From assembly GCA_964611355.1 (NCBI GenBank), contig CAZSYD010000008.1:53939-73938 (forward strand): a DNA stretch of 20,000 nt, read 5' to 3'. This DNA comes from an uncultured Ignavibacteriales bacterium. Lineage in GTDB: Bacteria; Zixibacteria; MSB-5A5; GN15; JAAZOE01. A model generated the notes under the pieces. It searched no databases and was not told where the DNA came from. It saw only the letters and a program-made list of their open reading frames with translations. Numbering within the stretch: the stretch's first letter is position 1; each line of letters begins with the position of its first letter. The position numbers and the translations under genes were made by a program. Shown here piece after piece: positions 1 through 16,923 of the stretch.

Positions 1-2
1 AC

Positions 3-512
3 GACAGTTTTTCCTCGCCGGAACCGCTGGACGTCAGAAAGGCGGATTTGAAGAAGCTTTTGCTCTATAACGCTTCCAGCGGGAGTTACGAGGACAAGAC
101 AGATGAAGCGGCTTCATCCGAAACGGCCGATGTTTTCCACTCGGCCTCGAATGCGCTGCTTTCCGCGGTTGGCGATGCGCTGTTTATCGGTATAGATGAG
201 CCGTTCAACTATCTTCATTTGCTGTTGTCCACTACCGGAGCCGGCGGCGAAGTCAACTGGAAGTACTGGGACGGCCAGACATGGAAAGCGTTTACGCCCG
301 TTTCCGGAACGTGGCACTTCGCCGCGGCTGAACATGACCTGCTTTTATGGAGCGACTTCGATTCAATCCCGGACGACTGGCAGAAAAAAACAATTTCCGA
401 AAGCAGTTGTTACTGGATTGTCGCAACGGTAACGTCGGCCTTCACGACGGCGCCGGTCGGTTCCCGCATTAACGCTATTTCCAACCTTAAAGCAATATCG
501 GCACAGGTGTAA
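3..512 (+). CDS. 5'-truncated hypothetical protein with C-terminal beta-sandwich domain of a type common in phage structural proteins
   Basis: Frame is open from position 3 (DSFSSPEPLDVRKADLKK...), so the TTG at 48 is probably not the start. Pattern 'DALFIG..PF..L....T.G.GG...WKYWDG..W ... W.K.TI....YWI' resembles jelly-roll domains of virion proteins. Stop TAA 510-512, 2 nt before the next ATG. Confidence 0.7.
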   Translation, partial: DSFSSPEPLDVRKADLKKLLLYNASSGSYEDKTDEAASSETADVFHSASNALLSAVGDALFIGIDEPFNYLHLLLSTTGAGGEVNWKYWDGQTWKAFTPVSGTWHFAAAEHDLLLWSDFDSIPDDWQKKTISESSCYWIVATVTSAFTTAPVGSRINAISNLKAISAQV

Positions 513-514
513 AT

Positions 515-1327
515 ATGGGTTTAACCAGCATAAGCCAGGTGCGCAATCATCTCAACCGGATAAATCTCGGCGAAGGCGAGATCCGTAACCACGCCGTACG
601 GCTTACTTCGGAAAGTTATGTCAACCTGCCGCACGGGCATATTGTAACCGGTTCGGAGACGGTTAAAGCGGTCGAAAATGATATTCCTTATTCGGAGATT
701 ATCGCCCTCGATTCAAGCCCGGTATCGCTGACTTATTCCAGGCTTGTTTCGGGCACAGTTGTCTGCGCCGGCGACAGCTCGCTTTCGAAGATATATCAGG
801 AAAACATCGATTTTTCGGTGGATTATGGCGAGGGGACGGTGGCGCGGATTGACGGCGGGGGTATCGAAGCGGGATGCGACGTGAGCATCTGGTATCTGTA
901 TTATCGCGTTTACCAGCGAGGCGTCGATTATCTTTTCGATTATGATCGGGGTCGTACCCGGCGGATCGCAACCGGCGCCATCGAAGAAGGCCAGGAGATA
1001 GCGGTTGATTATCAACTGGGAGATTCAGAATTCTCCGACGCCGAAATAGAACAGGGCATCACCGAAGCGGAAGCCGAGATTGCGAGGCTGATCCACCCGG
1101 ATTACCGTGAATCAACCGATCCGGCTCTTCAGACGGCCGCCACTTGTTTGACTTTGTCGGTTTTATGTCGAAATGCGGCCGGGATGGCTGTCTCCGGCGG
1201 ATCGCCAGGCGACCGCAGCCTGTCGGGCTGGATGGAGCTGTCGGATTCGTACCGGCAGACGGCGGTTCGGCTGCTGAGCTGGTTTCGCCGTGAGACGTCA
1301 GGACTTCGGACTCCGCGATTGTCATAG
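515..1327 (+). CDS. Putative phage head-tail adaptor/connector-like protein (Mu gp36/HK97 gp6-like helical fold) with inserted duplicated beta domain
   Basis: N-terminal 'LTSISQVRNHL' plus C-terminal 'SDAEIEQGITEAEAEIARLI...PALQTAATCLTLSVL...Y...A..LL' match the helical pattern of head-completion proteins. Two internal 'Y....D(F/Y)..DY..G...RI..G.IE.G....(I/V).Y' repeats. Confidence 0.55.
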   Translation: MGLTSISQVRNHLNRINLGEGEIRNHAVRLTSESYVNLPHGHIVTGSETVKAVENDIPYSEIIALDSSPVSLTYSRLVSGTVVCAGDSSLSKIYQENIDFSVDYGEGTVARIDGGGIEAGCDVSIWYLYYRVYQRGVDYLFDYDRGRTRRIATGAIEEGQEIAVDYQLGDSEFSDAEIEQGITEAEAEIARLIHPDYRESTDPALQTAATCLTLSVLCRNAAGMAVSGGSPGDRSLSGWMELSDSYRQTAVRLLSWFRRETSGLRTPRLS

Positions 1328-1341
1328 AGGGGAATATGTAA

Positions 1342-1716
1342 ATGAATACGACATTGTCATATCTGCGCGGGCGGCGGGCCTGGCTGGTTGATGGGCTGAC
1401 CGTGTGGGGGGCGGAAAGCGAAGCGGAAATTTTGATGGCTGCTATGGAGACGATCGGCTCCGATAATCGCGTCTGCTTCTGGCAGATTTCCCTGGGAGGG
1501 CATCGGCAGGAGGTGACCTTTGCCGATTTGATCGACAATCGGGGCAATCATCTACCCGAGCAGATAAAAAAGCCGACGGTGATAATCGTTCCCCGCGAAA
1601 GCAGTAGCGCTTATGTCAAAGCCGTCCGGGGCGAGGCTGGCTTTATAGTCGCCAAAAGCGACACCGATGGCAAATCGGTAGTGGTTGATCTGTTAATTTT
1701 TGAGACCGGGTTGTAG
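1342..1716 (+). CDS. Hypothetical protein (weak resemblance to H-type-lectin/gp53-like fibre domain)
   Basis: 124-aa ORF, SD-like AGAGGGGA upstream, in operon. 'EVTF...KPTVIIVP...GFIV...VDLLIF' strand pattern. Product call is weak. Confidence 0.65.
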   Translation: MNTTLSYLRGRRAWLVDGLTVWGAESEAEILMAAMETIGSDNRVCFWQISLGGHRQEVTFADLIDNRGNHLPEQIKKPTVIIVPRESSSAYVKAVRGEAGFIVAKSDTDGKSVVVDLLIFETGL

Positions 1717-1721
1717 AGCGG

Positions 1722-1979
1722 GTGGCGAAAAGACAGAAGAAAAAACCGGCGGCCCCAAAGGCCGCGGGAGGGAAACGGTTCTCTTCGGATATGGAGTTGC
1801 TTGAATATCTGAAGGATACCATCGTTTCCCAAATCGAGAAGGGAACCATAAGCCTGAAAGTGGGTGATCTTTTGAAAATACTGGAGATTCAGAAAAAACT
1901 GTCCTCCGACACCAGCGCCGAAGAGAAGTTCTGGGAGATTATTGAACAGATTCGGCAGACGGAATTGAAGGACGAATGA
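1722..1979 (+). CDS. Small helical hypothetical protein with basic N-terminal tail
   Basis: GTG start 5 nt after previous stop; 85 aa; MAKRQKKKPAAPK followed by amphipathic helices (LKVGDLLKILEIQKKL). Confidence 0.7.
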   Translation: MAKRQKKKPAAPKAAGGKRFSSDMELLEYLKDTIVSQIEKGTISLKVGDLLKILEIQKKLSSDTSAEEKFWEIIEQIRQTELKDE

Positions 1980-2022
1980 GGGCGTCAACACATCACGCGC
2001 CAATAGCTGATTTGGCGGCACA

Positions 2023-2841
2023 ATGAAAAGGCTGTTTCCGATACTGGTTTTTCTGTTTTCTTCGACTGTCCTGGGCGGGAGTTATACAATTTCTTCACCC
2101 GGGGCGACAGACTGTCGGGCGACGTTTATCAATGGCCGCTCAGGCAAGTCGCTGACCAACTTCGGCCAGGTGAACTTCGTTCGTTCCGGTTATTATTACG
2201 GAGAAATCCGGGGACTGATTGATTTTGAGGCTCTGGCCGATTCCATGCGACAGGTCGTTAATGACAGCGGGTCGGTGACCTGGGACAGCGCCATAGTTGG
2301 ACTAACCCATTACAATGTTACGGCTCCCGACGACAGTATATATGTTTCCGTTTATAAGGTAATACGCATGTGGGAAGAGGGGTTGGGCGACGGCGCACTG
2401 GGTTCCGGCAAAGATACGTGCGGTGCCTGCTGGGACAGCGCCAACGCTGCGGGGTATTCCGGTTGTTCCGGTACGGCAGCCGACTGGGGAACCGACGGCT
2501 GTGATAATACCGGCAATGACCGTTCTTCGACGAGGGAAACATTCGGCTCGCACGCCGATTCAATTTTAATACACGACGGCATATCTACGGGGACACCGGT
2601 TGATTTTTATATCTCCGGCTCAACCGTAACCGATACGTTGGGAGAGGGGCTTATTTTTATCCCCGTCGATTACGGCGACCCTTCTCCACCAACCAACAAT
2701 CCCTGCATAGCGACATTTTACTCCGACGATTATACAACCATTGCATCACGCCAGCCAAAGATAACCGTTTACTATACTCCAACCGGCGGCGGCGAAGAAC
2801 CCCGCCGACGCAGGCGAATGTTGTCGGGAGGCTCACAATGA
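2023..2841 (+). CDS. Secreted DNRLRE/TGF-beta-propeptide-like beta-sandwich protein
   Basis: Signal peptide MKRLFPILVFLFSSTVLG. Motifs 'TFI...TNFG', 'RGLIDF', 'SAIVGL', 'VYKVIRMWEEG', 'W...G', 'FYSDD......PKITVYY' are typical of DNRLRE-type domains. Stop overlaps next start (ATGA 2838-2841). Confidence 0.65.
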   Translation: MKRLFPILVFLFSSTVLGGSYTISSPGATDCRATFINGRSGKSLTNFGQVNFVRSGYYYGEIRGLIDFEALADSMRQVVNDSGSVTWDSAIVGLTHYNVTAPDDSIYVSVYKVIRMWEEGLGDGALGSGKDTCGACWDSANAAGYSGCSGTAADWGTDGCDNTGNDRSSTRETFGSHADSILIHDGISTGTPVDFYISGSTVTDTLGEGLIFIPVDYGDPSPPTNNPCIATFYSDDYTTIASRQPKITVYYTPTGGGEEPRRRRRMLSGGSQ

Positions 2842-4823
2842 GAAGAATATATATTTTAATTCTGGTATTTTGTTTGTGCACGGCGGCGCAGGCGAATTTC
2901 CTGGGGATAAAAAAGGCTTCGGAAACAGTGGTGTTCCCGGTGCAGCCGCCTCTCGATTCGGCCGGTATCCCGGGAACGGCGGATTCGATCCAGGTTATTA
3001 CTTACGCCGACAACGACGCCACCAGAGCGTACGGCGCAACCGGAACCGGTTATTCCTGCGCGGGAATTGATACCACCAAAGACTACGGCGGGACGCTTAT
3101 CTGGTTTTCCGACCGGATTCAGGATATCGACGGGGACGGCGGCAACGTGGAGCTGGCTGTTCAGATTGTTGCTTGGGTTGACGGACTGCCCACGCATACT
3201 TTCGCCACGATGCAGGTCGTCTCCGACTCGCTCGAAAATTTCCTCGATGCGGCGATGGATTCATCCTCGAGCGCCGCGGCGTTATCCAAGGATTGCCTTG
3301 ACAGCCTGCAGAATCAGGACGACTGGGTCGGGAACGTGCGGTATAACTGCGCCGATTCGATTCTGAGGCTGCGTGGTTTGCACGTTCGAGGAACGAATGC
3401 GGGCGATACGGGGCTGATTGCCATTGGCCATACCGACGGGTCCGGGGCGTACTTCAGCGGCGGCGCGGGTAATGCGCACGGGCTTTATGCCCGCGGTTTC
3501 GGAACCGGCAACGGCTTTTTAATTCAGGCTGATTCCACCGGCCACGGTATCCGGGCTCAGGGCGGACAAACCAGCGGCGACGGTATTCTTGCCGAGGCTC
3601 GCGGAAGCGCCTCCTCCTCTTACGGTATCCGGGGTAACGGGCAGGCGGCCGGTGCAGGCATCTATGGTTATGGCGGTCCGTCCGGAAACGGTATTCAGGG
3701 CGTCAGCGGCGGTGCCGGGCATGGCGCATATTTCAGGGGCGGTTCATCCGGCGGCCATGGCTTTTTGGCCGAAGCGCAGGCGGGCGACAGTTGCGGTATC
3801 GCGGCGCGCGGTCATGGTTCGGGCGGTGATTTTGCAGTCACTATTGATCTCGACGATCTGACAGGTACCCTCGATGCCTCGGAGATTGGGACTGGTGCCA
3901 TCGGTGGCGATGAGATGGCCGCTTCGGCGGCGGCGGAAATGGCCGTCGGCGTCTGGGGATACCTGCTTGACACCGCCTGGACAGCCGGATCGTTCGGCGA
4001 CTCCGCCAAAGGATGGGGCGCGACATCCGCTTCCGGTCTTGATTCGGGAGTGGTGCAGCGAATTGCCAATCGGCGCCTCGATTCAACCCAGACGGCCGAC
4101 GTGATCTCAGGGACGATTGACAGTATTGGCGGCGGCGGGGTTGACGCTATATGGAATGAAACTCAAGCCGATCACGGCCAGGCCGGTACTTTTGGTTTCT
4201 ACCTTGATGCGCCCATAAGCGGTATCGAAGCGCCTTCGGGAAGCGGGTCGTACCCGGTGACTCTGGCCGTGATTGACAGCGTCAATGCTCAGGTTGTTCC
4301 GGGAGCAAAACTATCGGTTTATAATCTCGGTCTTGACGCCCTTTTGGCGATCGGCGCTACCGGATCGGAAGGGACGGCGGTCTTTAATCTTGACTCCGGC
4401 GGTTATGTTGTCTCCACATTCGCGCCGGGATATATTTTTTCGACGTATGATACCATAACCGTTTCCGGAACCACCAGCGATAGTATCGCCGGGTATCGGT
4501 TTGATCCCGGCAGTCCGCCGGTTGGGGATCTTTGCCGGGTGTACGGGTTTATCTACGGTATCGACGGCCGGCCGGTAGAAGGGGTCCGGGTGGACGCGCA
4601 GATTACCGACGGCGTTGTCCGGCATAATTCGACGATTATCAGTCCATACCGGAAAAGCGTCGTTACCGATTCGACCGGATACTTCTATCTCGATTTGATA
4701 CCTTCCGACAAGCTGGCCCCGCCACAGACGGAATACCTGATAACCGCGACCTATCCCGCGGGAACGATCCTGAAGAAGAAAATCCAGGTCCCTGCCGGCG
4801 ACAACTGGCTTCTGGCCTGGTAG
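2838..4823 (+). CDS. Signal-peptide-bearing Gly-rich repeat fibre/adhesin-like protein with two C-terminal transthyretin-like (carboxypeptidase-regulatory/tail-fibre-N-like) domains
   Basis: Signal peptide MRRIYILILVFCLCTAAQA; about 12 imperfect 11-14-aa G-hydrophobic-x-small-x-G repeats; two '(V/I)W........AG(S/T)FG' motifs; C-terminal 'VYGFIYGIDGRPVEGVRV...TDSTGYFYLDL...Y.I'. Confidence 0.7.
   Translation: MRRIYILILVFCLCTAAQANFLGIKKASETVVFPVQPPLDSAGIPGTADSIQVITYADNDATRAYGATGTGYSCAGIDTTKDYGGTLIWFSDRIQDIDGDGGNVELAVQIVAWVDGLPTHTFATMQVVSDSLENFLDAAMDSSSSAAALSKDCLDSLQNQDDWVGNVRYNCADSILRLRGLHVRGTNAGDTGLIAIGHTDGSGAYFSGGAGNAHGLYARGFGTGNGFLIQADSTGHGIRAQGGQTSGDGILAEARGSASSSYGIRGNGQAAGAGIYGYGGPSGNGIQGVSGGAGHGAYFRGGSSGGHGFLAEAQAGDSCGIAARGHGSGGDFAVTIDLDDLTGTLDASEIGTGAIGGDEMAASAAAEMAVGVWGYLLDTAWTAGSFGDSAKGWGATSASGLDSGVVQRIANRRLDSTQTADVISGTIDSIGGGGVDAIWNETQADHGQAGTFGFYLDAPISGIEAPSGSGSYPVTLAVIDSVNAQVVPGAKLSVYNLGLDALLAIGATGSEGTAVFNLDSGGYVVSTFAPGYIFSTYDTITVSGTTSDSIAGYRFDPGSPPVGDLCRVYGFIYGIDGRPVEGVRVDAQITDGVVRHNSTIISPYRKSVVTDSTGYFYLDLIPSDKLAPPQTEYLITATYPAGTILKKKIQVPAGDNWLLAW
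3370..3830 (+). repeat. Imperfect Gly-rich peptide repeats (probable beta-helix/beta-roll)
   Basis: GLIAIG/GAYFSG/GLYARG/GFLIQA/GIRAQG/GILAEA/GIRGNG/GIYGYG/GIQGVS/GAYFRG/GFLAEA/GIAARG units separated by short G/S/N/H turns. Boundaries approximate. Confidence 0.75.
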
Positions 4824-4836
4824 AAAGGAAGAAAGA

Positions 4837-5163
4837 ATGTCATTTCCGGGTTCAATACTTGATTTTATCGCCAACAATCTACTCAGTCTCGCCGGCGGTA
4901 TATGGGCGGCGGTCGGTTTTCTGATTACCTGGCTGGCCAAACAATACCTGGTTCCTCTCCTGAAGGTGGAAAGGAATCGGCGGTATGCCCGATGGATTGC
5001 AGCCATCGCCGATGAGTTGACGGATGATTTGAAAGCGCGTTATCCGGGCAATAAATGGATCAGCGAACTGGATGAGGCCGTCGATCGAATTATGGAGATT
5101 TGCGGCATCGAAAAAGCGATTGCCGGACGGGCAATCCGGGCTGCGGTTGCCCGGAAAAGCTGA
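4837..5163 (+). CDS. Putative phage holin-like membrane protein (LL-H family-like)
   Basis: 108 aa; single N-terminal TM (LLSLAGGIWAAVGFLITWLA) then charged helices ending 'RAIRAAVARK', like the 'IEAAV..K' end of LL-H holins. SD AAGGAAG upstream; last gene of the operon. Confidence 0.55.
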   Translation: MSFPGSILDFIANNLLSLAGGIWAAVGFLITWLAKQYLVPLLKVERNRRYARWIAAIADELTDDLKARYPGNKWISELDEAVDRIMEICGIEKAIAGRAIRAAVARKS

Positions 5164-5227: not shown

Positions 5228-7420
5228 TTAGGGGCAAGGAGGCGGCCCTGACAGGAACAGGTATTTGTGTAAATAAATAACGTCGGAAATATCCACCGAA
5301 CCATCGCAGTTGACATCAGCCGCTTCGTGGCCGGTAACCGGTGGCGGGCCGTCGCCGTACAGGAAATTGGTCAGATAGACGATATCGGCCGGGGTCACAC
5401 CACCGTCATCGTCAACGTCACCCGGAATACAACCAACGATACAATCGATATGTGTCAGAACTGAGGTGCAACCCTTATTGCCGTTGGCGTCATGGGCGGT
5501 GGCGAAAAGGAAATAGAGCGAATCTTCATCCAGAGAACCGGTATCCCAGTAGAATTGCCAGCCGTCCCCCGGGTTGGCGTCGATACCGACGGCGGTGCGG
5601 CTGACCGTCCAGTCAAAAGGAACAGCCCCGACCATAATATCGACCTCAACCCACACGTCATTGTACGATATCCATAGCTTGTCGGCTTCTTCTTTAGCCG
5701 TGAAGTCGTTGATTGCGGCGGTTACCGGATTGACCATGCTTAAAACATAATGGCGGTTGTTATCGGCCAGGCCGGTGGCGCCGGCGATCGTCATCCACAC
5801 TCCGGGATTGCCGGATATCCCGACCATAACAATATATTCGTAATCCTCGGCCCAACTGCGTAACATGGCCATGGTTGGCTGGCGATCAATATGCAAATCA
5901 AGCTGATTTCCGTGGGCGACAACATATTCGCGCAGTCCCGAAACGAATTCGCCGTCATAGGATCCAAGATTTTCCCGGATGTGCATGGCGGAAAAAAGGC
6001 GATCTATGAGCTGGGTATCGGTCAATGTAGTCGTGCCTTCGGTTAAGAGATAGTTGTATCCCTTGTCGAACCAGTACCTGATGGCCGTGGCCGCCGCCGC
6101 CGGCCCAGAGCAATAATCGCCGTATTCGCCCTCCGAAGCCGGATTGCCATCACCGGGGTCATCGTCGACATCACCCCCAAGCTGCTGGTCGATGACGGTC
6201 AGCGGCAGCGAAAATGCCCGGCTGGCGTTCTTGATGTCAAAGGTCATATAGGTCAAATCTTCATCGGTACAGCTAAGCTGAGCCATGATACTGGTGCAGA
6301 CATTCTGACCGAAAGTCGGCTGGATGAATTCGGGCGTCGGGGGCGTCGGGTCGATATGGACGCTTACCTCTGAGGTGTCCGCTCGGCCGAGGGTATCGGA
6401 GACAATTACTCGCAACTGGTAATCATTTTCCGGAAGTCCGCCAGTGTTCCATGAATATGAAAGGCCGTCGCCGGTTCCCGAAGGGGTTACGCCGTTTCGC
6501 AACTGGGGATTGTCATTATCGTCGGTCCCGATATCAACCCAGGAATCACCGAGATAATACCGGAACTGCGCCCTGTCGATTATTTCCGAGCCGGCAGCGT
6601 CATTGGCCCATAAATCGACAGCCATACCGAGGAACTGGTTGTGTTCCGGATGAATAAATCGAGCTGCCGGAGCGGGTTGGTCGCCGGACATTCCGCCGGT
6701 GGTACCGCTCGAGAAAAGAACCAGGCGTCCGGGAAATATTTTGAACGGGTTGGACGGGTCAGTGCGGTTGTAAACCGTATCCAGGTCGACGTATCCGTCT
6801 CCCCAGTCGTTATAGGAAATGCACGGTTCGGGAAAAGTATCGGTAACCACGGCGCAGGAGGTGGGTGTGCCGGCATCGGCGAAGTATGCGCCGACGAAGT
6901 ACGGCCCGTTGATCACCACCGGAGTGTCGAGGGGAAAGGTAACCATGTAAAGACTGGGTACGGTGATCTCGATTTGGTATAGCGGCGTGATGGCTAGAAT
7001 GGTATCCGGTTTGGGACAGTTGGGATTGGTTCGGTCAACTCCTTCAACGTCGACCGATATGAAAACGGTCCCGGTATCGACAAAATAAAGGGCAAAGTGG
7101 ACGTTTTCGACAGTAAACGGATAAGGCTTGTCGCAACTCAGAGACGGGTCCTGGTAAGCTTTATACAACTCGTCGCCGATCACCCAGGGATAGATATAAT
7201 AAATTATATCACCGCCGGCATAGACTGTACAGGTGTCGCCGGTTCGCAGCCGCGGAGTAACGCCTTTGGGACTTATCGAGACCGGGTTGGTATCGGTAAT
7301 TTTGTTTATCTGAGGCGGTGGTTTTACGACGTGCGCAGCTTCCGCGGGAGCTAATATGAAAATCGTCACAACTATTGCAAAAAGGATAAAAAAACGTCGT
7401 GGATAAATATTATCGTACAT
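5228..7420 (-). CDS. Secreted multidomain protein: N-terminal beta-sandwich, Ig-like (Big) domains, degenerate C39/papain-like domain, C-terminal dockerin type I-like domain
   Basis: Signal peptide (RRFFILFAIVVTIFILAPAEA); SD GAGGAG; Ig motifs 'YSWNTGGLPENDYQLRVIVSD..G' and 'FYWDTGSL...YFLFATAHD.NGN'; 'YCSGPAAAATAIRYW'; twin EF-hand-like repeats GDVDDDGGVTPADIVYL / ADVNCDGSVDISDVIYL. Confidence 0.85.
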   Translation of the reverse strand: MYDNIYPRRFFILFAIVVTIFILAPAEAAHVVKPPPQINKITDTNPVSISPKGVTPRLRTGDTCTVYAGGDIIYYIYPWVIGDELYKAYQDPSLSCDKPYPFTVENVHFALYFVDTGTVFISVDVEGVDRTNPNCPKPDTILAITPLYQIEITVPSLYMVTFPLDTPVVINGPYFVGAYFADAGTPTSCAVVTDTFPEPCISYNDWGDGYVDLDTVYNRTDPSNPFKIFPGRLVLFSSGTTGGMSGDQPAPAARFIHPEHNQFLGMAVDLWANDAAGSEIIDRAQFRYYLGDSWVDIGTDDNDNPQLRNGVTPSGTGDGLSYSWNTGGLPENDYQLRVIVSDTLGRADTSEVSVHIDPTPPTPEFIQPTFGQNVCTSIMAQLSCTDEDLTYMTFDIKNASRAFSLPLTVIDQQLGGDVDDDPGDGNPASEGEYGDYCSGPAAAATAIRYWFDKGYNYLLTEGTTTLTDTQLIDRLFSAMHIRENLGSYDGEFVSGLREYVVAHGNQLDLHIDRQPTMAMLRSWAEDYEYIVMVGISGNPGVWMTIAGATGLADNNRHYVLSMVNPVTAAINDFTAKEEADKLWISYNDVWVEVDIMVGAVPFDWTVSRTAVGIDANPGDGWQFYWDTGSLDEDSLYFLFATAHDANGNKGCTSVLTHIDCIVGCIPGDVDDDGGVTPADIVYLTNFLYGDGPPPVTGHEAADVNCDGSVDISDVIYLHKYLFLSGPPPCP

Positions 7421-11092: not shown

Positions 11093-11206
11093 TTGAACAT
11101 CAATTCATTCCGAGGATCGTAAAATCGCCTTTATATTGCCGCGGTCGCCCAGCCACATGGCGGCGACCTCGCAATGATCACATATCTCTTATGGAATAAT
11201 ACGGGC

Positions 11207-11244
11207 AAAAAAAAGGGAAGCAAGGCAAAAACCCTGCTTCCCTT
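11207..11244 (-). terminator. Intrinsic terminator of the 1651-aa gene
   Basis: AAGGGAAGCA (11213-11222) / TGCTTCCCTT (11235-11244) stem with A8 at 11207-11214 (U8 on the minus strand), 22 nt past the stop. Confidence 0.88.
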
Positions 11245-11266
11245 GAAGATGTATTGTCAAACCAGC

Positions 11267-14200
11267 TTACGGAGTAGGAATCTCAGGTAGTGTCCATTCG
11301 CCAACAGGTGCGGGACCTGTGCCAAACCAGTAGTCGACCAGATAGACAAAGTCAGCGTTGTCTAATGCGCCGCTGTTGTCGACGTCGGCCAGGTGCTCAA
11401 AGAGCGGACCGTCGCCACCCGCATTAAGCAGGTTAAACATGGCAACAAGGTCAGACAGGCTGATTCCACCGTCGCGGTCGATGTCGCCGCGCATGAAGCC
11501 GGCCCACTGGTTGACCAGAATCGCGAACTGCTGGAAGAACTCAACGTCGAGCGCGCTCTTGTCGTTGAAGCCGAAGAAGTAGAAGCCGATGGTGTGGGTT
11601 TCAAACGGAGCGTAGTCGCGCATGTCATACGCAAACCAGGCTTCGCGATCAGAAGAAGCGCTGCCGGCATCGCAAGGCAGGTTCATGTCAATACCGGGCT
11701 GATAGGTCTCGCCGGTATTATGGCTCATCCAGTAGTAGATGGAGTCGAGCATGACGTTATCGGCGTGCCATCCGCCCTGATCGGCGTCAATGGTATGGAC
11801 ATTGTAGAGCCTGTGCTTGGGGTTGGTCTCATCCATCGGGATAGTACCCTGGCCCCAGACCCAGGTGTCATTGGGAGCCGCATTACAGGCCTGACCAAAA
11901 CCAATGGCGTGCGCTTCGTCGTACTTGAAGACGTCGAATGTATTGCTCTCAAGGTCATAGTCGTTGAACGAGCCGATGCCGATGTTGCTGAGGGTCGTGT
12001 TGTTGCGGTTGGTAACGTTCGCCTTGAAGATGACGAAGTTGCCAAGATCCGCGTGCTCGGCGCCGTACATGAACTCGTTAACCTTCAGACCAATCGTCAG
12101 GCCGTTGTCATACGGGCAATCCGTGTTGGTCCAATCCCAGCCTTCGCCATGACAGTCATAGTCAACAATCGAGTCAACGTAACTGTAATGGAAAACAGTG
12201 CCGGGGACATCGACATAACCGCCCTTGGAGTCATCCCAGATTTTACCAAGAGAGGTAAGGGTCTCGGATATCGGAGGGCAGGTGCCGCTGAGGTTGGCAT
12301 CCGCAAGCAGAGTGTTCCAGTAGTCAGCCGGGTCGCCGCCGTGCCAGCTCTCGAGGTTGAAGGCAATACGGTACTTCGAAGCGCCGTAGATCAGACCGCC
12401 CTGCCAATAGGCAGCGCTGTTGCCGTCAAATTCCCAGAGATGGACGTCCTGGTTACCGAACTGACCGGTGTTCATAACCACACCGGAGTTCGCTTGGCCG
12501 TCGCCGAAGTATATGACATCTTCAGCTTCAAGGCAGCCGCCGAGAACACCATACTGAACGGTCGGATCGAGATCGCTGTTGATGTAGTAATTGTCGTTGG
12601 ATGCAACAGTCACATAACAGCGATGCGGACCACGAGTAACGAGGCCGGGGAACACCGAGTAACTGACTGTAAAGGCAGCGCCGGGACCTATATCGAAGGC
12701 CGTCGTCAGCACTTCATCCAGCCAGTCGGGCTCGGCATACGCCGCCGCGTTGCTGTATGTCTCTTTGGAGTAAGCCGTCGTCGAGAATTCGCGGGACGAC
12801 ATATCCGGTTGAGCCTTGACCAACTCCCTGGCCATTGACGGGTAGTCGTAATCAACCATGTCGTTGGCCATCTTCTGAGCCCTGGCAATCCGGTTAGGAG
12901 TGACTGTGCTGTAATAGGCAGGCGGAGCAACCTCGTCGACAGCAATTGTACCGGTCAGGTTGGCGGCGCCGTTGTTCATGAAGGCGTCAGCATAATCAAC
13001 CTGATAGGTTGTCGGTTCAACCGGCTCGAACTCGTCGAACTTCAAGAAGCGGAGACGCGGACGATCGCCCTTCGCCGACTGAACGGTGAAGCAGAAGATA
13101 TCGCCCAGGCGGTTGGACATCACCACGTGATCCGGATCAATCGCCGCACCGGTACCACGCCGGCCGTACGTATCGGAGCCAGCATAGAAGTAGTTGTACT
13201 CGAATTCACTGGTACCGGTTTCGGCGTTCCAGACAACGAACTGGGCGTCCGTGTTGGGCTGATACAGAAGATCAGGCTCAAGCAGGCGGCAGTCGAGCGC
13301 GGGTTCAACCCAGCCCATGCCGTCAAAGAACGCATCGGATTCATAAATGAGACCGCCGCTGAACTTGTCAACAGACGCAAAAGTCATGGGCTCGGAAGTC
13401 CAGCCGCGCAGGGCCACGAAGTAAATCGTGCTGGCGTCGATGACCGGGCCGGTATAACGCGGGAAGCGTCCGGCCACACCCCAGTCAATACTGCCTGTGG
13501 AGCTGATTCTGTAACGAGCACCGGACGGATCACCGGACATCTCGCTTTCGAAGCCGGTCATGACATAGATTGAGCCGTCTATATCAACGCCGATCGGGCC
13601 CTGGAATATCTCGGTGGTAACGTAGGGAATGGTGTCACCGTCGATGTCATGGCCAAGCAGGTCGCCGTCACTCATTGACCAGATGGTTGCACCGTTGGCG
13701 GCATCCAGGGCATATATGGTGCCATAGAAGGTGCCGCCCGAGCCGTCAGTGCCGACATAAAGCACGTCGGAGCCGTTGCTCGAAAGAGTGGCGTAGGTAT
13801 CGCCATCGAGCACAACCGGGTTACCTGCACCTGCCGTCCAGCCTGCGTACTCACTGCCATCGGCGTCATTGAGGGCATAAACCTCGCCGGCAGCGGTGGT
13901 GACGAATATCACAAGGTCGCCGCCGATATCAAGAATAATCGGGGCAGTGTAGTAGGTACCGCCGGCAAAGCCGCCCACAGCGGTAGTCCACTCGATAGCG
14001 CCGGTGTAGATATTGGCCTTGGTGAAGTTCCTTATGGCAGCGCCGCCAAAGTAGACATAATCGCCATAGGCCATCGGCGAGCAGTTAAAACTGCTGCTGC
14101 CGATATACGGCGTGCCGGAGATTGTCCACATCACGTTTGGCACGATATCTAGCGGATTGGTCTGATCACCGTTAACACCGTAAGCCACGAGTTCCGCATC

Positions 14201-16222
14201 AAACGGAGCGACTACGACGGTGTCGTGGATGATCGGACGAGCGTACGGGCCATTAAACAGACCCGGGCCCTGTAAGTGGTCCCGATGCTCCCACCAGAGC
14301 ACTGCCTGCTTTGCCTTAACGTCGCCGGTGTTGTTGTCGGACGCTGAGGTACGACGCTGATCGTGACCCGGGAAGCTCCAATCCTCGCCGGGACCGAAGA
14401 CGTCGCACTCACGCTCCGGCGGCTTGACGCAGCAGGTGTAGGCGTCCATGAAGGCATGGTAGGTGCTCTGGTTGACATAACCGTCGGACCAGAGCTGATA
14501 CACGCCGGCGCCGCATGATCCGTCATCCTTAAGCATGTAGAGATCCGGTGTGGAGCTGTTATAGGGCGCATCCGATTCAACACCAATATAGATTGGCATA
14601 TCAAAACGGATGTTTTGAGCGGAAACGTCGAATTCATTCCAGGCGGGGAAGTAATTTAATCCGCCGGCCGGAACAACGATTTGATGCAGAATAGTTCCCG
14701 GGGTGCCGCCAGGCCCGTCACTGTCGCGGATTATAAACCGCGTATCGTACTCAGTGGGAGCCTCACCGGCATCATAGGTCACGACACGGAATTTCTCTAT
14801 ACGACAATCCATGCCCTGGTTTTGGACGATCTCATAACCTGCAATAAGGGCATAATCATCGGGCGCAGGGTAGTAGGTCGGTATGCCCGTGATATATGCC
14901 GGATCCGGACAATAATTAACTATCATCCGGCAGAGATCGAACTCGTCTTTGCAGAGGTCAACTTCCATATATATGTTATTGTCTGTGGTAAAGAAGTTAC
15001 CCCAGAAATAGCATTCATATACGCCCGGACCGGCGACATAGTCGGTCAAAAACGCCGTCCAGAGACCCCCGCAGCTTCCATCGTCCATAAGATAGGCGAT
15101 GCTATCGCCGGGGGCATTAATTACAGGCTGAAAGCCGACAAAGAAATCCTCGCCCGGAGGCAGAACATAATCTATGCCGGTGAAGTTCTGATCCCAGTCG
15201 CCCGGGTCCAAACTGGCGTTTAAGCGGGTAGTCTCCCAATATATAACGGAAGTATCGGGAAGACCGGTAGTCGCATCAGCGCCGCAGACCCATACTCTCA
15301 GATCAGGGGCGCCAGTCCAGTAGTAGAGGCCAACCATAATCGACTTCAGAGTGTCTGCGCCGCCCGTTGTGTACCTTGTGCTGATGTGGGATCGGTTAAA
15401 GTCGCCATCCGGAATCGTTGAGTAATAAGCAACACCGCAATAGTGGGCTTGGGTATAGCATTCGGAGAACCCGATATCAGTACAGCAGACGTCAACACCA
15501 AAACCGAACGCAGTAGTCGAAGGTGGATAAACGTAATAACCAACTCCATCGGTTATAAGCTGACGTCGTTCTGTGAGATTACTGCCATCATCCATAAGAA
15601 TTGCAAGTCCGGTAGTTACAGGATCAACCGGGTGAGCAGCGATGTGATAATCCTCTCCATCGGAGAATACATAGGGATTACCGGCATTGAGCGTGCTTAC
15701 ATCGGCTGCGGCATAACCCATTGCTGTGGGCAAAGATGCAAATGGAACGGTTACATATCCTAACAAAGACCCGGGCCAGCCGGTTCCGTCGTCATCCCAG
15801 ACTTCTACTACCATATCAGGACTGCCGGTAAATCCGGCTGGGTAAACCCCAATATATGCTGTAAGAAGACTGCAGTCGTATCCCTCAGCGGCAGTATGAC
15901 GCATCCAGGAATTGATCAATGGATCGGGGTCACCACCGATTACGCCGTAGGAAACCCAGGCTCCCAGGGAGTAATCGATGAATTCACAGTAAACGTCCGG
16001 GGGCCAGTGTTTTACGGGGAGAGGCAATGCAATATTCCCCTTCGATTGCGTAATCCTTTCTTCAACCGCAAAGGCATTGTTGTCCTGGCCGTTGGGATTA
16101 CCCTGGCCGATATTCACTGCGTTGGCAGGGTCTGGTCGCGTATCGTCGGAACCTATAACCGCACCACTTATGGCAAACAAGAACCCAAAAGTTAGCACTG
16201 CGATTAACAGTTTCTTAGACAT
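11267..16222 (-). CDS. Large secreted surface protein: three Cys-bounded N-terminal repeats, PQQ/BamB-like beta-propeller, Ig-like region, C-terminal dockerin type I-like domain
   Basis: SD AAGGAGG; signal peptide MSKKLLIAVLTFGFLFAISGAVIG; 'WSFPGHDQRRTS', 'VYALNDADG', 'IYALDAANGATIW' propeller motifs; 'RGDIDRDGGISLSDLV...ADVDNSGALDNADFVYLVDYWFGTGPAP'. Confidence 0.9.
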   Translation of the reverse strand: MSKKLLIAVLTFGFLFAISGAVIGSDDTRPDPANAVNIGQGNPNGQDNNAFAVEERITQSKGNIALPLPVKHWPPDVYCEFIDYSLGAWVSYGVIGGDPDPLINSWMRHTAAEGYDCSLLTAYIGVYPAGFTGSPDMVVEVWDDDGTGWPGSLLGYVTVPFASLPTAMGYAAADVSTLNAGNPYVFSDGEDYHIAAHPVDPVTTGLAILMDDGSNLTERRQLITDGVGYYVYPPSTTAFGFGVDVCCTDIGFSECYTQAHYCGVAYYSTIPDGDFNRSHISTRYTTGGADTLKSIMVGLYYWTGAPDLRVWVCGADATTGLPDTSVIYWETTRLNASLDPGDWDQNFTGIDYVLPPGEDFFVGFQPVINAPGDSIAYLMDDGSCGGLWTAFLTDYVAGPGVYECYFWGNFFTTDNNIYMEVDLCKDEFDLCRMIVNYCPDPAYITGIPTYYPAPDDYALIAGYEIVQNQGMDCRIEKFRVVTYDAGEAPTEYDTRFIIRDSDGPGGTPGTILHQIVVPAGGLNYFPAWNEFDVSAQNIRFDMPIYIGVESDAPYNSSTPDLYMLKDDGSCGAGVYQLWSDGYVNQSTYHAFMDAYTCCVKPPERECDVFGPGEDWSFPGHDQRRTSASDNNTGDVKAKQAVLWWEHRDHLQGPGLFNGPYARPIIHDTVVVAPFDAELVAYGVNGDQTNPLDIVPNVMWTISGTPYIGSSSFNCSPMAYGDYVYFGGAAIRNFTKANIYTGAIEWTTAVGGFAGGTYYTAPIILDIGGDLVIFVTTAAGEVYALNDADGSEYAGWTAGAGNPVVLDGDTYATLSSNGSDVLYVGTDGSGGTFYGTIYALDAANGATIWSMSDGDLLGHDIDGDTIPYVTTEIFQGPIGVDIDGSIYVMTGFESEMSGDPSGARYRISSTGSIDWGVAGRFPRYTGPVIDASTIYFVALRGWTSEPMTFASVDKFSGGLIYESDAFFDGMGWVEPALDCRLLEPDLLYQPNTDAQFVVWNAETGTSEFEYNYFYAGSDTYGRRGTGAAIDPDHVVMSNRLGDIFCFTVQSAKGDRPRLRFLKFDEFEPVEPTTYQVDYADAFMNNGAANLTGTIAVDEVAPPAYYSTVTPNRIARAQKMANDMVDYDYPSMARELVKAQPDMSSREFSTTAYSKETYSNAAAYAEPDWLDEVLTTAFDIGPGAAFTVSYSVFPGLVTRGPHRCYVTVASNDNYYINSDLDPTVQYGVLGGCLEAEDVIYFGDGQANSGVVMNTGQFGNQDVHLWEFDGNSAAYWQGGLIYGASKYRIAFNLESWHGGDPADYWNTLLADANLSGTCPPISETLTSLGKIWDDSKGGYVDVPGTVFHYSYVDSIVDYDCHGEGWDWTNTDCPYDNGLTIGLKVNEFMYGAEHADLGNFVIFKANVTNRNNTTLSNIGIGSFNDYDLESNTFDVFKYDEAHAIGFGQACNAAPNDTWVWGQGTIPMDETNPKHRLYNVHTIDADQGGWHADNVMLDSIYYWMSHNTGETYQPGIDMNLPCDAGSASSDREAWFAYDMRDYAPFETHTIGFYFFGFNDKSALDVEFFQQFAILVNQWAGFMRGDIDRDGGISLSDLVAMFNLLNAGGDGPLFEHLADVDNSGALDNADFVYLVDYWFGTGPAPVGEWTLPEIPTP
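14430..15995 (-). repeat. Three tandem ~170-aa diverged domain repeats
   Basis: Each starts C.....Y(S/C), contains 'D.....+.....G.P...+' and '(L/M)..DDGS(N/C)' (near 15590, 15080, 14525), and ends 'DVCC'/'DLCKD'/'YTCC'. Boundaries approximate. Confidence 0.75.
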
Positions 16223-16339
16223 TTATTTCCTCCTTAGAATTAGGAAAAAGCTGAGAACCTTCATTCCGATAACATCCTTAGAATTTACATCGGCATTTAA
16301 GTCAAATATTTGATTTTCCATTTAACCTTCCTACCGATC

Positions 16340-16825
16340 TCCTATGAACGTTTATCCCGCAAAATCTTGTCTAGGGATGGCGCGGGATTAGTCCAAAATA
16401 AACGGTTCTTAGATTCCTATTACGGAGTAAGGAGTTAAAAAACTTTTCTCTAAGCAGTAAGTTTCTTAGAGAGGTTGACGAATAACTCCAAAAACGTTGT
16501 GTTTTGAATTTTCGCACCTAACTCTTACAAAAGACTCAAAAACAGTTAAAACGTCACCTCCTGTAATAATCTATGATGTGTTCTTAGTTTTCCGATGAAA
16601 ATTCAGTGGGGTATTCACTTGACGGATATACCAGGATAAGTTACCTGAGGGGTATGTATAAAGCGTAAACGCTTTTATGCATTATCAGTGTTTGATTGAC
16701 CCCCGTAAAAAGCATAAGTATCAGTCTTATTCAAACTGAAGCTTTTTACATACATCAAAGGTCAGCAAAGAAGTATAGTCGGTTTCCTCGGGCAAAGTTG
16801 GCTCAAAGCCCTTGGGAACCAGTAA
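16340..16825 (-). ncRNA. Candidate long structured 5' leader / cis-regulatory RNA
   Basis: AT-rich non-coding region with at least five consecutive non-overlapping inverted repeats; no known family recognised. Confidence 0.45.
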
Positions 16826-16840
16826 CACACGCTCGAAAGT

Positions 16841-16868
16841 ATAATACGGGTTTTTCCGGCGTTGTCAA
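16841..16868 (-). promoter_or_regulatory. Sigma70-like promoter (proximal) for the 1651-aa gene
   Basis: Minus strand TTGACA (16868-16863), 16-nt spacer, TATTAT (16846-16841). Confidence 0.65.
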
Positions 16869-16895: not shown

Positions 16896-16923
16896 ATTCT
16901 ATCTGCAAATCCGTTTCTGTCAA
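16896..16923 (-). promoter_or_regulatory. Sigma70-like promoter (distal) for the 1651-aa gene
   Basis: Minus strand TTGACA (16923-16918), 16-nt spacer, TAGAAT (16901-16896). Both -35 boxes lie in an identical 11-mer AAGCCTTGACA. Confidence 0.6.

Follow-up and report, generated by a model that had tools for sequence, protein, structure and literature searches.

What could split the codon usage of a single gene in two? The question is raised by a gene for a secreted protein of 1,651 amino acids (11267..16222, minus strand), located in the window, that is, the whole 20,000-nucleotide stretch of DNA from an uncultured bacterium of the Zixibacteria that was analyzed. The gene is a single copy in the window's own genome (assembly G000). 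In a preliminary description, it had been proposed as a candidate S-layer-type expression locus, in which a very highly expressed constant 3' region is fused to a recently swapped or fast-evolving N-terminal cassette. The analysis leads to a modified answer, which is probably correct: the gene would encode an abundant, secreted, dockerin-tailed surface protein in which three N-terminal modules were replaced in place, often singly, as divergent alleles recombined homologously with the gene; the split in codon usage would be the footprint of these replacements.

The three modules, R1 (residues 79-254, 15461..15988), R2 (residues 255-431, 14930..15460) and R3 (residues 432-605, 14408..14929), precede a host-adapted core that begins with a PQQ_2/BamB-like beta-propeller (about residues 606-1060, 13043..14407) and continues in a predicted mostly-beta C-terminal core (about residues 1061-1570, 11513..13042); all features of the gene lie on the minus strand. 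Both codon runs quoted in the preliminary description, C-rich in the 3' part and mixed in the 5' part, were found in the sequence. Using a step model, the G+C content of synonymous third codon positions (GC3s) changes from 0.49 before codon 552 (window position 14569, support 14587-14473) to 0.68 after it, with a log-likelihood ratio of 25.9, while the maximum over 300 shuffles was 9.0. In addition, optimal-codon use rises from 0.41 to 0.59 at codon 571 (window position 14512, support 14839-14476). Both positions lie near the R3/propeller border, where the preliminary description had placed the transition. Among the 284 open reading frames (ORFs) of at least 600 codons in the genome, this internal step ranks second strongest, and it fits better than a linear trend (log-likelihood ratio 25.9 vs 18.4). 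The split is real, but its sharpness is weakly resolved, since sigmoid transitions with widths of 66-132 codons are only about 2 units worse than the step. The statement that the 3' part uses almost only C-ending codons was overstated, with C ending 518 of its 1,047 codons (49%), T 274, G 190 and A 65, and two small mixed patches reported within it proved to be noise, statistically the same as the core (p 0.10-0.61). The 5' part is itself uneven, with a third-position G+C content (GC3) of 0.39 in R1 and 0.57 in R2 and R3, and host-adaptation percentiles at the 2nd, 71st and 81st for R1, R2 and R3, respectively.

The main codon outlier is the 3' core, not the 5' part. The core is at or above the 99th percentile of the genome for GC3, for C-ending two-fold codons and for G-ending Lys/Glu/Gln codons, and the codon bias of its C-terminal portion reaches the 99.9th percentile. 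It is almost devoid of GGA, GGG, CGA and CGG, even when compared with 165 other lagging-strand genes. Its optimal-codon score of 0.59 exceeds the genome 99th percentile of 0.52, while the modules score 0.41. The core shares its codon bias with GroEL, and also with genes that, from their N-termini, we take to be isocitrate dehydrogenase, citrate synthase, Rho, ATP synthase alpha and beta, S1, SecA, DnaK and enolase. These ten genes were the housekeeping reference for the optimal-codon score, and the set had been started from the codon traits that it serves to score.

The phylogenetic histories of modules and core were compared on 59 of 64 aligned proteins, five partial rows being dropped. The core tree recovers the host families. 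The approximately unbiased (AU) test was applied by imposing only strongly supported core clades, and replaced a whole-topology AU test that rejected the reference topology for the core controls too. The core clades were rejected for R1 (p 4e-4), R2 (p 5e-4) and R3 (p 1.5e-45), and for none of six core control pieces of 134-160 columns (p 0.10-0.48). The mutual misfit of the module trees was 475-740 log units, compared with 103-233 among core pieces, and near residues 580-610 the congruence with the distances of the core climbs from about 0.35-0.45 to 0.63-0.69. The N-terminal region has a history unlike that of the core, and the two meet at the codon step, as had been proposed; the AU tests speak against a common phylogeny of the 5' and 3' parts.

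Seventeen pairs of homologues have a core identity of at least 70%, and low-identity tracts were observed in 15 of them. Residues 592-622 (window positions 14449-14359) are where the tract stops in seven pair groups. The 3' end of R3 coincides with the codon step, and replaced tracts usually have their 3' border there. The idea of one recently swapped cassette gave way to three modules with separate histories. The nearest relative, P0002, is unlike the window gene only over residues 260-440, that is, R2 (55-58% identity vs 84% in the core), and shares R1 and R3 with it; the difference between G052a and G030a is confined to R1, and that between G002 and G011 to R1 and R3. The swapped tracts show synonymous saturation in the two closest pairs, with 0.48 in R1 vs 0.80-0.88 in the core for G052a/G030a, and 0.48 in R1 and 0.52 in R3 vs 0.80-0.90 in the core for G024/G027, which is not expected from point mutation under diversifying selection. 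Conversely, module identity is well above core identity in some pairs (R2 of G006/G042a, 0.76 vs 0.30). Of 21 hand-picked breakpoints, 16 are no more than 25 residues away from a module border, where 35% would be expected; for the inner ones the count is six of 11.

Variation within populations was studied in salt-marsh and sediment metagenomes, which are the settings of the lineage. The survey covered eight of 20 listed runs, as low-depth contigs that drop rare variants, probably from one sampling campaign and possibly including the source sample. The listing named no RNA data set, which carries no information on expression. At least 40 variant sites lie in the gene; among those listed, 28 are in R1-R3 (1,581 bp), 12 in the propeller (1,365 bp) and none in the last 1,776 bp, which include the C-terminal core. 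They fall into 10 clusters and are densest in R2. The changes affect 33 codons, 17 synonymously and 16 non-synonymously, and one cluster consists of five synonymous changes in 16 bp, as expected of an imported tract. Natural transformation is possible, since comEC and dprA are present in the genome.

Several observations weigh against replacement by recombination as the source of the codon split. Twelve of the 40 listed variants are located beyond the codon step on its 3' side, and the eight metagenome runs contained no whole alternative module but only clusters of single-nucleotide variants; none of the alternative 5' alleles or breakpoints near 14500 anticipated by the preliminary description was listed there. 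Five of the 11 inner breakpoints are away from the module linkers, and two small divergent tracts lie inside the core. The codon gap is mostly small in relatives (median +0.046), is reversed in 8 of 51 full-length homologues, and has its extreme, +0.17, in the window genome. The DNA of the closest relatives, P0002 and P0005, is absent from the synonymous-site comparison, which leaves the window gene's own modules outside it. Monophyly of the window's family was not rejected for any module (AU p 0.085, 0.33 and 0.19), and the clade of the window protein with P0002-P0006 was rejected only for R1 (p 0.015). With family monophyly not rejected, the trees point to neither a donor nor a direction and give no support to cross-family transfer; the latter was dropped as a candidate, the cross-family similarities being synonymously saturated and old.

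A further point against is that the ribosomal-protein genes (G000:C16 operon) and EF-Tu do not have the C-ending bias of the core, although leading-strand skew may mask it. The ribosomal-protein genes were discarded as an uninformative high-expression reference because they are unbiased in the window genome. For this reason, and because the housekeeping reference shares its selection criteria with the score, we only infer high expression. From the codon bias and the promoter described below, the protein is likely to be very abundant; of the proposed very highly expressed constant region, it is the codon signature that stood. Leader-bearing copies show the stronger core bias in five of six within-genome pairs for NNC codons and in all six for Gly/Arg codons, a comparison in which the 5' end of G007b is missing and G030 and G052 represent one genus.

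The preliminary description had suggested, after the sap system of Campylobacter fetus, programmed antigenic variation, in which silent copies elsewhere in the genome supply an expression locus with N-terminal cassettes. Searches with tblastn, blastn, phmmer and a module hidden Markov model (HMM) gave no silent, partial or promoterless second copy in the 96%-complete assembly, and no such paralogue of the 14430-16000 region. A single match is present in 14 of the 20 genomes that are well assembled; three others carry two or three copies with all three modules, and four (including G002, which is also among the multi-copy three) contain lone modules within other, longer ORFs. These lone modules lack DNA similarity to the main gene in all eight comparisons, and several of their host ORFs are dockerin-like-tailed. 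Each second copy is a complete gene that encodes a signal peptide of its own. The promoter-leader described below is in sense orientation in all loci examined, and no promoter inversion joints were found in the eight metagenome contig sets, although such contigs drop rare variants. On the other side, second copies are mostly leaderless, 12 of 13 leaderless genes being in genomes with another copy or a separate leader contig, and near-identical tracts occur between copies of one genome: the two tandem copies of G002 are identical over stretches of 552, 167, 1,126 and 1,245 nucleotides, and the G049a and G049b proteins are 93-99% identical over residues 101-400 vs 73-86% in the core. Moreover, contig breaks fall within the gene in 18 of 56 genomes, compared with 10.6 expected (a rough estimate, assigned by hand), so donors could be unassembled. 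Second copies, where present, exchange sequence with the main copy, and a programmed system fed by silent cassettes is quite unlikely.

An explanation without exchange, in which the exposed modules evolve faster under relaxed or diversifying selection and amino-acid change erodes the codon bias, is unlikely. It would agree with the near-equal share of non-synonymous codons in the populations, with the mean family identity of R3 (0.275, below the 0.33-0.34 of the core) and with the weaker codon bias of variable than of conserved sites within the core. However, R1 and R2 are on average conserved like the core (0.32 and 0.33), and conserved residues show the codon deficit of the modules too (27/62 and 33/76 vs 185/285, with p 0.002 and p 0.0009), so faster protein evolution alone is insufficient; the module identities far above the core and the synonymous saturation of divergent tracts also argue against it. 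A selected translational ramp, with slower codons over the first 550 residues aiding co-translational export and disulfide folding of the Cys-linked modules, is consistent with the lower N-terminal GC3 of 43 of the 51 full-length homologues, which as kin are not independent, and with the invariant cysteines of the module linkers. It is nevertheless very improbable: codon use is average directly behind the signal peptide and then falls below the genome norm in R1 (2nd percentile), a course that is not monotonic, the gap among relatives goes from negative to +0.17, and the tree conflict is left unexplained. It is hardly credible at all that the split is an artefact of strand or mutation, or that a diversity-generating retroelement targets the N-terminus. 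The gene is indeed on the C-rich, likely lagging strand, but the strand is constant along the gene, G-ending Lys/Glu/Gln codons are enriched too (0.76 vs 0.41 in lagging genes) and GGG is absent; for the retroelement, neither a reverse transcriptase in the assembly nor a repeat pair able to serve as template was found, and the variants are not adenine-specific.

Under replacement by recombination, the exposed modules would be overwritten in place, with the conserved linkers and the propeller start acting as landing sites. The donors would be mostly other cells and, in genomes that contain them, second copies. Incoming sequence from relatives of lower GC or from weakly expressed second copies could reset the codon tuning of the modules, while the core would have stayed long enough to be tuned to the host, as the modules likely have not. 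Phages or predators may exert the selection on the exposed modules.

Regarding the protein itself, a signal peptide of about residues 1-24, read by eye and containing no cysteine and hence no lipobox, is followed by a low-conservation lead segment (residues 25-78; together 15989..16222). Modules R1-R3, each of about 175 residues and with a mutual identity of 22-27%, are joined by cysteine linkers. R1 is predicted to be a beta-sandwich. The module was modeled with a mean predicted local distance difference test (pLDDT) score of 86.8, and its best structural match is the lectin-like domain of Cwp84 (PDB 4ci7; Z 17.5, root-mean-square deviation (rmsd) 2.2 Å, 153 residues, 10% identity), a fold predicted for R2. 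On this model, the modules are predicted to be sugar-binding-like or lectin-like. Against the sequences of solved structures the module profile gave nothing significant, Pfam showed no family for the module in the window protein, and an ESM Atlas search with R1 returned only unnamed clusters. The module also recurs singly in many other proteins, mostly near the N-terminus (990 matches at E ≤ 0.001, P0102-P0170). The propeller matches YxaL (Z 40.9, rmsd 2.3 Å, 342 residues) and BamB, and the database labels 'BamB' on homologues are fold-based misnomers. A structure search including residues 1061-1570 named no fold, its match lists being filled by the propeller.

The protein ends in a type I dockerin-like tail with two calcium-loop repeats (11290..11500), detected as a profile match. 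Dockerin family PF00404 scored 20 bits in one scan, below the cut-off of 22.9, and 25.9 bits in another, above it; the family's own dockerin profile matches solved dockerins, and the two C-terminal calcium-loop repeats agree with type I. Genome-wide, there are 35 dockerin and seven cohesin matches, and surface display of the protein may be mediated by cohesins. No SLH domain was found in the protein or the assembly, although many S-layers lack SLH, and the protein showed no CWB2 or SLH anchor and no protease domain. Named homologues are mostly from Zixibacteria. The core profile matches 181 of 285 genomes of the phylum, namely the window genome and 180 of 212 genomes in ten families, and none of 72 in ten others.

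The preliminary description likened the gene to loci with a single strong promoter, and a strong, consensus-like one conserved in relatives was found. Two sigma-70-like sites each match at 11 of 12 positions: a proximal site, TTGACA-16-TATTAT (16841..16868), kept in the same place in leader-bearing relatives, about 650 nucleotides before the start codon, and a distal one (16896..16923) whose conservation in relatives was not seen. Between promoter and gene lies a conserved structured 5' leader of about 610 nucleotides (16223..16834, the start being placed from the promoter), whole or partial forms of which a profile detected ahead of 37 of 50 homologues from three families; in the window genome it gave one match. 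The leader is the marker of the main copy. It contains the ribosome-binding site AAGGAGG (16229..16235), which is near-invariant in 26 aligned leaders and predicted to be mostly paired.

The 612-nucleotide leader folds with a z-score of -3.6, and 15 family leaders range from -1.1 to -8.7. It is predicted to form a multi-helix RNA that contains an internal GGAGGTGA and in which the ribosome-binding site has alternative pairing partners. A predicted pseudoknot joins 16556-16552 and 16480-16476, and over 15 sequences this pairing is TGACG/CGTCA in 11 and GGACG/CGTCC in four. Compensatory change was found at 24 of 80 hand-set pairs, a number reached by none of 500 shuffles and compared with 10-14 in slid controls, with the structure derived from the same sequences as tested. 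An alignment-free swap test backs three helices (0 of 5,000 permutations each) and not a non-partner control; helix P6, which is nearly invariant, was non-significant. Helices P3 and P10 were paired in 57% and 49% on the MAFFT alignment, and P10 passed the alignment-free test. Rfam 15 gave only chance-level matches for the window stretch and five related loci, and no conserved leader peptide or ORF was found among nine leaders. From these sequence features, the leader may act in mRNA stability or translational control.

In two genomes, the leader-bearing copy is frameshifted (L037:5924-10905 in G002, where a short stretch of C has a one-base gap, and L077 in G039), which may be a long-read error or an inactivated main copy beside an intact second one. 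Locus L159 (G121:C6:224000-237500) has two tandem copies, each with leader-like sequence; the 655-nucleotide leader/signal region is 82% identical between them and the remainder about 69%.

Downstream of the gene, an intrinsic-terminator-like hairpin followed by a T run was read by eye (11205..11245), and beyond it there is a palindromic G+C-rich element of about 45 nucleotides (window positions ~11135-11180), which resembles a repetitive extragenic palindrome and is repeated at three to four other intergenic sites (C8:39864, C9:65134, C16:165 and, weakly, C44:791). An M50 peptidase gene comes after the surface gene, both in the window and in G061. At 5228-7420 the window encodes a second dockerin-tailed secreted protein, whose N-terminal segment looks by eye to be of the same jelly-roll type, while the module HMM gave no match to it. 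The gene run covering window positions 1-5163 and G000:C8:44857-53938 looks by eye like a degenerate prophage or capsid operon; the N-termini upstream of the window are presumably portal-, terminase- and capsid-like, and only weak PHROG tail matches were obtained, for window positions 515-1327. Elsewhere in the genome, two more secreted proteins with sorting-type C-terminal tails (G000:C26:29095-33027 and C29:35-2911) carry an AT-rich N-terminal part on a host-like C-terminus, with GC3 values of 0.32/0.63 and 0.37/0.61 for the N-/C-terminal parts, which suggests that import of passenger domains is common in the window genome.

A wider interpretation would make this protein the main cell coat of a whole class of Zixibacteria, a dockerin-anchored equivalent of an S-layer with three outer lectin-like modules that cells exchange as interchangeable units to escape phages, and with an undescribed 610-nucleotide RNA switch gating the ribosome-binding site. 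As a whole this is doubtful, and both the S-layer status and the phage pressure are inferred. Searches of open-access text brought up no relevant paper on the Zixibacteria envelope, which is essentially undescribed there. The gene is a concrete candidate for a dominant Zixibacteria surface protein and a likely phage receptor. It would represent exchange of surface alleles at the scale of single modules in a free-living lineage without host immune pressure, and it points to a role of cohesin-dockerin display outside cellulosomes. In addition, it offers a large structured leader RNA accessible to in vitro study, and suggests that borders of recombination can be recognized by a codon step within a gene.

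Compared with known proteins, the predicted fold of the modules resembles the Cwp84 lectin-like domain and galactose-binding-like jelly rolls, although, unlike in Cwp84, there are three tandem copies, the identity is only 10% and no protease domain was found. The propeller shares its fold with BamB, YxaL and PQQ-type propellers but is embedded in a 1,651-residue protein without a lipobox. Lactobacillus acidophilus slpA reportedly has two consensus promoters before a surface-protein gene and a stable mRNA, and the gene studied here likewise has two promoters and a long folded leader. Other long S-layer mRNA leaders are not known to reach ~610 nucleotides, and this one differs from them and from large ornate RNAs in its length, its multi-domain organization, its predicted pseudoknot and the lack of an Rfam 15 match.

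The Campylobacter fetus sap system is said to have a single promoter on an invertible segment, and comprises several promoterless homologues conserved at the N-terminus. The locus resembles sapA in having one strongly promoted gene, with which leaderless second copies exchange sequence in a minority of relatives; it differs from it in having mostly one copy, no inversion seen, and the N-terminus as the variable part.

In Clostridioides difficile SlpA, the variable low-molecular-weight fragment is N-terminal. As with SlpA, a variable exposed part is combined here with a conserved anchoring part, the variants appear to be derived by recombination, and the variable region is discordant with its flanks. 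SlpA isoforms arise via recombination, not point mutation, with the exposed part being a phage receptor (PMC12680318, PMC5270738), and the exchanged S-layer unit is a cassette of ~10 kb with four genes (PMC5270738). Unlike in C. difficile, the tracts are intragenic, comprising about one to three modules of 175 residues instead of a multi-gene cassette, and the tail is a dockerin, with no CWB2 or SLH anchor found. By analogy, the pattern fits slpA-type allele replacement at the scale of single modules.

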